64,000 nucleotides of DNA from Eledone cirrhosa (taxonomy: Eukaryota), in assembly GCA_964016885.1 (NCBI GenBank), contig OZ024741.1, positions 317,688,001-317,752,000 on the forward strand. Reading direction: 5' to 3'. Every line of letters starts with the position of its first letter. The first letter of the stretch is position 1. Below are positions 24,439 to 24,509 of this stretch, in pieces. A model generated the notes under the pieces. That model had not been told where the DNA came from, did no database searches, and saw only the letters and a list, made by a program, of their open reading frames with translations. The position numbers were made by a program, and so were the translations under genes.

Positions 24439-24509
24439 TCGCACCAACCTGAGGTATATGATTTTTAATGCGATGAAATACCAATGATGGTTGGCAAATC
24501 ACTGACGAG
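24439..24509 (+). ncRNA. Candidate non-circularly permuted hammerhead with K-turn, diverged copy C (within fragment 24401-24575)
   Basis: TCGCA-CCAACC-TGA-GGTAT-A^TGATTT-ttaa-TGCGA-T-GAA-ATACC-AAT-GAT-GGTTGG-C-AAATCA-CTGACGA; compensatory changes relative to copies A/B. Confidence 0.72.

Follow-up and report, generated by a model that had tools for sequence, protein, structure and literature searches.

A kink-turn in a predicted S-G-C hammerhead ribozyme of a retrozyme-like repeat from Eledone cirrhosa

The window analysed here, a stretch of 64,000 nt of Eledone cirrhosa DNA, holds copies A, B and C of a retrozyme-like repeat that is devoid of any ORF, and the features of these copies are collected in Table 1. 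Several other elements share the window. A fragment of a zf-RVT LINE (24943-26025) adjoins copy C, and a LINE that bears RVT_1 and a PHD finger has left many fragments, at 8341-11339, 25983-26984 and 55591-57752. Two stretches, 19963-20959 on the minus strand and 58669-59061 on the plus strand, resemble by eye the GIY-YIG endonuclease ends of Penelope-like elements, and the former returned no Pfam match. A long near-perfect palindrome at about 33970-34110 recurs beside TA tracts at loci L021, L067 and L195. At 12040-12300 (+) lies a degenerate member of another retrozyme family, unrelated to the present one, with a type I hammerhead whose stem III is palindromic; this family forms ~465-nt tandems and probably has thousands of copies. 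An abundant family lacking the GA positions is an unrelated type I hammerhead and was rejected.

Table 1. Coordinates of the repeat copies and of the predicted ribozyme elements of copy C.
Feature	Position	Strand	Remarks
Copy A and spacer	16866..17381	+	Upstream unit of the tandem, 512-nt spacing; A1n changed to C at 16963
Copy B (subfamily F2)	17382..17592	+	K-turn intact; G2n 17474, A1n 17475, UAU bulge, G1b 17509, 4b-4n = C-G
Copy C (subfamily F1)	24398..24587	+	Piece of ~190 nt, 5'-truncated, from a retrozyme-like repeat of ~530 nt; between TA tracts
Leader 5' half, GUCC (helix Pa)	24412..24415	+	Pairs with GGAC 24510-13 after CUGACGA; in the MFE fold
Leader side hairpin	24417..24436	+	7 bp, U6 loop; MFE; compensatory variants in other subfamilies
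Leader 3' half, UCGCA (helix Pb, stem II equivalent)	24439..24443	+	Pairs with UGCGA 24469-73 before GAAA
K-turn, non-bulged strand	24444..24452	+	NC helix CCAACC 24444-49, U3n 24450, G2n 24451, A1n 24452
Block S	24453..24464	+	Stem III strand GGUA, U16.1 24457, A17 24458, stem I strand UGAUUU; hammerhead consensus and covariation
UUAA linker, stem I to Pb	24465..24468	+	Both adenines invariant in 27/27 representatives
Block G	24469..24482	+	Pb strand, position 11.1 (U24474), GAAA 24475-78, stem III strand UACC
K-turn, bulged strand	24483..24494	+	AAU bulge 24483-85, G1b 24486, A2b 24487, U3b 24488, NC helix GGUUGG 24489-94
Block C	24496..24513	+	Stem I strand AAAUCA, CUGACGA 24502-08, G10.1 24509, GGAC

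Copy C reads CC-UGA-GG at 24448-54 and CC-AAU-GA-U-GG at 24481-90, exactly as the initial annotation had it. The C helix of the kink-turn (K-turn) is hammerhead stem III itself (GGUA 24453-56 with UACC 24479-82). It is followed by the bulge, by the non-Watson-Crick pairs A24452 (1n)/G24486 (1b), G24451 (2n)/A24487 (2b) and U24450 (3n)/U24488 (3b), and by an NC helix of 6 bp. Copy B had been credited with the same motif; its K-turn is indeed intact and has the proposed UAU bulge, but its 4b-4n pair is C-G instead of G-C and it therefore does not match box C/D. Among the copies of the window, U·U at 3b·3n together with G-C at 4b·4n is found in copy C only. Copy A carries UGC at 16961-63 and thus lacks the adenine 1n, as had been noted before; this is a sporadic mutation, and the copy sits in a tandem despite the loss.

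A strict K-turn pattern, with a C stem of 4 bp and an NC stem of 6 bp, matches copies B and C and nothing else in the window. Shuffled windows yielded a mean of 0.97 such matches (30 shuffles), which means that a single motif per window is not rare in itself; the pattern appeared in none of 5000 shuffles of the 115-nt region. The K-turn is decided by conservation and covariation, not by such chance counts. The minimum free energy (MFE) fold of copy C includes the NC helix and stem III (z = -2.75), and the corresponding z-scores are -1.73 for copy B and -1.63 for copy A. Across the repeat family, the bulge lies between a C helix and an NC helix that covary, and position 2n may be U, C or A. On these sequence grounds we regard the K-turn as real, with a bulge of three nucleotides and then G1b·A1n and A2b·G2n, and we predict a kinked three-dimensional fold.

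At the gathering score, Rfam returned no match to the ribozyme region, for which it holds no family. Weak matches to its CD-box snoRNAs (25.2 and 14.9 bits), along with the AUGAUG and CUGA of copy C, might suggest a box C/D snoRNA-like RNA or a captured snoRNA fragment. However, the two scores are far under the gathering cut-offs of 65 and 85, box D stands 5' of box C, a guide region is absent, and the motifs are not conserved, whereas the hammerhead core is. This very improbable reading is largely refuted.

The K-turn is built into a hammerhead whose blocks occur in the order S-G-C, a non-circular permutation in which CUGANGA, GAAA and NUH lie in the proper register relative to stems I and III. 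Position U16.1, which the own-genome search patterns did not fix but the filter required, is followed by a non-G at position 17, and in copy C the cut is inferred to fall after AUA, at 24458/24459. The strand after CUGANGA forms at most one pair with the strand before GAAA. Stem II is instead split into two helices with a 5' leader: Pb is formed by the leader and the strand before GAAA, and Pa by an earlier part of the leader and the strand after CUGANGA. A hairpin usually separates the two halves of the leader, and it is not evident in subfamily F7. Pa has 4-5 bp in the subfamily of copy C, where it is weakly supported (best-helix mean 5.9 versus 4.3 in the control), and 7-12 bp in most LINE-borne versions. 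Positions 10.1 and 11.1 are paired with each other in 21 of 27 own-genome rows versus 1 of 17 metagenome rows, and in 16 of the latter 11.1 is paired with a leader base. The NC arm comprises nine positions and is joined to the stem I strand by a single linking base.

Permuted hammerheads of type SGC (HRIMA-1 and variants) were described by Eckert et al. 2023 (PMC10085705) from metatranscriptomes and not from the genomes of known organisms; according to their main text, no such RNA occurs in the latter save for one weak GCS case. The RNA described here shares with them the block order, a short linker between stems I and II, and a pseudoknotted core. As far as the type is described in that text, its stem II forms directly and an interaction helix connects stems I and II, whereas here stem II is splinted by the 5' leader. 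The words 'k-turn' and 'kink' occur zero times in the main text, in contrast to the present case, where a K-turn caps stem III and an animal retroelement carries the RNA. The same text takes the blocks to be uninterruptible, flags the connection at the far end of stem III as geometrically unexplained, and mentions a helper protein as a possibility (PMC10085705).

The genome, of 3.0 Gb, is rich in TA tracts. Its repeat units are about 500-540 nt long, with spacings mostly of 496-544 nt, and mostly end in TA repeats 67-82 nt beyond the core. Among 60 loci, 21 show tandem, 4 inverted and 35 single units. Over 182 nt, copy C and the F1 unit of locus L003 have 97% identity; all 40 scored genomic matches of copy C (856 candidates) are 99-100% identical to it, all 40 of copy B (1104 candidates) are 100% identical, and each thus has at least 40 near-identical dispersed copies. 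The core pattern GAAA-N7-GA-N14-CUGANGA matches the genome 25,677 times (8,697 + 16,980) versus 347 times (29 + 318) for the reversed control. The 5' breakpoints are not clearly concentrated at the predicted cut: they fall within 16 nt of GAAA in 9 of 115 cases versus 1-8 in similar bins, a noisy measure in which inverted partners extend each other. At L079, L275 and L172, the inversion or truncation junctions lie at or within one base of the predicted cut, in an S block that resembles the TA target.

With its non-coding tandem units, one hammerhead in each and a dispersed distribution at high copy number, the repeat has the properties of a retrozyme. Animal non-LTR retrozymes, as characterised in the accessible text of PMC7229834 and 10.64898/2026.07.22.740005, similarly consist of non-coding tandem units of a few hundred nucleotides with one hammerhead each, are dispersed in thousands of copies, and are linked to Penelope-like elements. 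These published retrozymes contain type I hammerheads and, by the same accounts, were searched for with type I models only; the hammerhead of the window repeat, in contrast, is permuted to S-G-C and carries a K-turn.

To assess conservation, we used three sets of sequences. For the first, 44 clusters were obtained from hammerhead-block anchors, and after removal of 17 with another linker length or fewer than three Pb pairs, 27 subfamily representatives remained; stems I, III and Pb served as selection criteria for this set and the NC helix did not. The second set comprises 45 further copies, left from 64 matches after exclusion of 14 lacking an S block and 5 with fewer than five NC pairs; 6 of the 60 regions behind it were hand-picked from other lists. 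The third derives from metagenomes, where the search pattern fixed A1n, G1b and A2b but left 2n and all stems free. There, 17 of 89 matches, corresponding to 14 distinct cores, possess the whole fold by a loose combined score, and the other 72 were dropped. In most own-genome rows the invariance of G1b and A2b was fixed by the search pattern, while A1n was never fixed by the patterns used on this genome.

In the 27 representatives, 88.0% of the positions expected to pair do so, 18 of 22 pairs show compensatory changes, and the covariation score is 0.664 versus at most 0.145 for slid registers; as the rows and subfamilies are related, these counts are not independent events. The NC helix is 87.7% paired, with compensatory changes at five of its six pairs. 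Pb is 80.7% paired, with three of five pairs compensatory, in rows preselected for at least three Pb pairs. The metagenome set is 95.2% paired (score 0.723 versus at most 0.143 when slid), with Pb at 89.6% after the loose combined filter, and covariation of stems I and III is seen both in distant hosts and in the own genome.

The initial annotation had expected both the G·A and the U·U positions to be constrained among homologues. The G·A positions are mostly kept, above all A1n, which is present in 27/27 representatives and 43/45 further copies, whereas U·U is one of several types at 3b·3n. Position 2n is G in 21, U in 4, C in 1 and A in 1 of the representatives, G in 40 and U in 5 of the further copies, and G in all 17 metagenome matches, where it had been left unspecified; U at 2n occurs in 12 of the 44 clusters. 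A search for non-G at 1b gave 4,339 matches versus 2,702 in the control, and the SGC-type rows with non-G at 1b are mostly point mutants, among the matches listed; from these counts we estimate that ~94% or more keep G1b. In DNA contigs from two sequencing runs, no variant of at least 5% was seen at G2n, A1n, L2, L3, G1b or A2b, and positions 3n, 3b, 4n and 4b are variable. One whole family (L221:1430-1544 and L222:1430-1544) has G1b replaced by A together with C2n. From viral contigs, 120 matches were examined, of which 3 passed the loose filter and none was convincing.

Relatives of the ribozyme are found at the 3' ends of Naiad elements, for which the last 430-600 nt of about 50 of the 54 consensus sequences of PMC8557442 were parsed by eye, not computed. 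Eight of these ends appear to carry a leader-SGC ribozyme: Obim, Ovul, Bfor, Amil, Movir-2, Plae, Chem-3 and Esco. Judged by eye, Obim and Ovul possess a standard K-turn with a U·U core of box C/D type; in Bfor a helix is inserted at the kink, and in Amil, Movir-2, Plae, Chem-3 and Esco a plain bulge or junction takes the place of the K-turn. These parses show a bend that seems to be kept at the kink site across Naiads, with the K-turn probably one solution among several. RNase P and the lysine riboswitch are known examples of a bend that is retained while the K-turn is replaceable. Craig et al. 2021 (PMC8557442) report Naiads, in the accessible text, as lacking a canonical hammerhead, with 'HHR_core' or 'half_core' noted in some. 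Other motifs were also seen by eye in the Naiad ends, namely a type-CSG hammerhead in six nematode Naiads, an SGC-like hammerhead in one spider Naiad element, and twister-like motifs in the cnidarian Movir-1 and Chem-4 as well as HDV-like ones in Chem-1 and Chem-2; a conserved motif common to the Naiads of bivalves, hemichordates and Clytia may represent a further ribozyme.

The window repeat shares with Naiads, as portrayed in the accessible text of PMC8557442, the (TA)n target, partial tandems and inverted 5'-truncated copies; unlike Naiads, it has no ORF. Subfamily F7 has stretches of 9 nt and 15 nt identical to the Ovul Naiad ribozyme. A Naiad ORF beside the SGC ribozyme was sought in the own genome and not found; cephalopod Naiads are described as long inactive (PMC8557442).

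A second group of relatives is borne by LINEs. Of the 17 metagenome matches, 12 lie directly downstream of an ORF that shows a restriction-like endonuclease signature and weak R2 matches. The own genome contains an R2-superfamily LINE homologue with an RVT_1 domain (37% identity), and in 15 of its best 20 loci (L515-L534) the ribozyme follows the ORF match by about 70-110 nt. At L525 and L534 there is an apparent next unit after the ribozyme, like in head-to-tail tandems. These R2-superfamily LINEs with a C-terminal restriction-like endonuclease may be HERO-like. In the LINE version of the own genome, stem III comprises 5 bp and Pa 12 bp, and the kink is non-standard, with A at 2n or of a complex form; this version, with 15 exact matches, is far less numerous than the retrozymes. 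By their TA target, their inversions and the identities between F7 and Ovul, the window retrozymes look closer to Naiad than to the LINE.

It has to be considered that the fold might not be an active cis-acting hammerhead, and that it could rather represent a 3'-UTR structure, such as a binding site for reverse transcriptase, or a ribozyme that works only as a dimer, its stem II being interrupted at 10.1/11.1. The near absence of pairing between the strands after CUGANGA and before GAAA, together with the assumption of uninterruptible blocks in the main text of Eckert et al., would agree with this. A cut ~70-80 nt upstream of the 3' end of the element would also detach the priming end from a single-unit transcript, and 8 of 9 predicted Xenopus retrozymes did not cleave, according to the accessible text of 10.64898/2026.07.22.740005. 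Nevertheless, the core nucleotides are complete and fit the register of stems I and III, a non-G comes after U16.1, and the covariation extends to distant hosts. Related Naiads moreover hold other ribozymes at the same place (CSG in six nematode and twister-like in two cnidarian elements, by eye), which suggests that the site needs cleavage. We consider an inactive or dimer-only fold improbable, and continue with a hammerhead predicted to cleave itself.

The motif resembles standard K-turns, as defined in the available text of PMC5061560, in its three-nucleotide bulge, the G1b·A1n and A2b·G2n pairs, a purine at L2 and C-G as the commonest pair at -1b/-1n, and variants with U at 2n resemble the non-standard Kt-23. 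Unlike in box C/D, U4 snRNA, Kt-7 and SAM-I, positions 3b·3n and 4b·4n vary here by subfamily, and both arms are tethered in a pseudoknot. The term 'canonical box C/D' of the initial annotation does not hold as a general feature: RUGAUG together with CUGA is present in 2 of 27 representatives and RUGAUGA in none, and copy C carries AUGAUGG, not RUGAUGA, with CUGA. The U·U pair occurs in 14 of 27 representatives, 14 of 45 further copies and 0 of 17 metagenome matches. In the further copies, 3b·3n is UU in 14, UG in 12, AG in 8, AA in 4, CU in 3, GA in 2, CA in 1 and UA in 1; the metagenome matches have CU (6), AG (6), CG (2), UG (1), CA (1) and AU (1). Four pair types are found across copies at 4b·4n. 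The A-minor adenines are the most constant positions, and the guanines read by L7Ae vary.

These differences bear on folding. The accessible text of PMC5061560 states that G at 3n or C at 3b gives ion-induced folding, unlike in U4 and box C/D; K-turns of the box C/D type do not fold in ions alone and need protein, and ion-induced folding is predicted to fail for 97% of U4 K-turns. By these rules, ion-folding pairs at 3b·3n, among them the A·G type of Kt-7 and SAM-I, are carried by 24 of the 45 copies from the own genome and by 14 of the 17 metagenome matches. Taken with the plain bulge or junction that replaces the K-turn in other Naiads, this points to a kink that is most likely architectural.

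A different reading holds that the K-turn is kept as a site for 15.5K/Snu13 or another protein of the L7Ae family that is needed for cleavage or times it. The U·U core of box C/D type in copy C and in the Obim and Ovul Naiads would suit such a switch, as ions alone do not fold K-turns of that type (PMC5061560). At L3, U is found in 21/27 representatives, 36/45 further copies and 15/17 metagenome matches even though, by the account in PMC5061560, this position contacts no RNA, a hint at a protein pocket. Position 2n is G in 40/45 and 17/17 of the latter two sets, binding of L7Ae persists in a non-standard K-turn that has A in position 2n (PMC3985660, as far as its accessible text goes), and Eckert et al. 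had entertained a helper protein. On the other hand, ion-folding pairs occur in 24/45 and 14/17 rows in comparison to U4 K-turns with their 97% predicted not to fold, U at 2n and A at 1b are fixed in whole subfamilies, at least five Naiads bend in the absence of G·A pairs, and boxes C and D are found together in just 2 of 27 representatives. A switch of this kind seems unlikely to us. Within the U·U subfamilies, binding of 15.5K and stimulation by protein are possible, and copy C being of the U·U type, help from a protein is plausible there; the earlier suggestion that a host protein gates cleavage is unsupported.

From the observed block order, helices, conservation, copy number and tandem and inverted insertion into (TA)n, we favour, with a probability of about 0.7, a K-turn that serves as an architectural element of a predicted self-cleaving S-G-C hammerhead on a non-autonomous retrozyme, for which the 3' end of a Naiad Penelope-like element is the probable source. 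In the S-G-C order, the strand that leaves the far end of stem III would have to regain stem I at its far end. By folding the nine-position NC arm alongside the core, the K-turn may deliver this strand to stem I with one linking base. The K-turn is conserved and, in line with the earlier suggestion, most likely enables the permuted topology, in that it redirects the strand leaving stem III at its far end towards stem I. Pb would stand in for stem II, tied to stem I by UUAA, and Pa and Pb together would make the junction at 10.1/11.1. With the 3b·3n pairs of most lineages, Mg2+ alone should suffice for folding; versions of the U·U type, copy C included, would be held by the pseudoknotted frame, possibly with help from a 15.5K/L7Ae-family protein. 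The predicted cut would convert tandem transcripts into ~500-nt monomers, which may then be circularised and reverse-transcribed in trans, as for type I retrozymes, whose RNA is circularised by RtcB (PMC7229834, accessible text).

K-turns, SGC hammerheads and retrozymes were each already known separately, and what appears to be new is their combination and the leader-split stem II. A literature search, with incomplete coverage of subscription journals, returned no description of a natural K-turn hammerhead, of a leader-split stem II, or of a permuted hammerhead in Naiad or LINE ends. The broadest version of the proposal would be a four-block hammerhead (leader, S, G, C), beyond the six permutations thought possible, which together with the K-turn would constitute an overlooked ribozyme of Naiads, R2-superfamily LINEs and their retrozymes across animal phyla, its cleavage controlled by 15.5K/Snu13 in lineages with U·U and U at L3. 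Taken as a whole, we hold this to be a rather unlikely speculation.

The ribozyme would offer a natural answer to the geometry question left open in the main text of Eckert et al., namely how the strand returns from the far end of stem III in type SGC. It is also a natural ribozyme with a candidate site for L7Ae-family proteins, and its subfamilies, which differ at 3b·3n, 2n and 1b, make protein control testable. The family with A1b and C2n (L221 and L222) is a natural test case of protein independence, and, if the proposal is true, the lineages with U·U and U at L3 would contain a natural protein-switched hammerhead. The absence of hammerheads in Naiads had been used to suggest that hammerheads merely parasitise such elements (PMC8557442); the claim in its accessible text that Naiads thrive without hammerheads would, if our reading is true, be overturned. 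Non-circularly permuted hammerheads would then go from rare finds in metatranscriptomes to very abundant elements of an animal genome, with more than 25,000 pattern matches.
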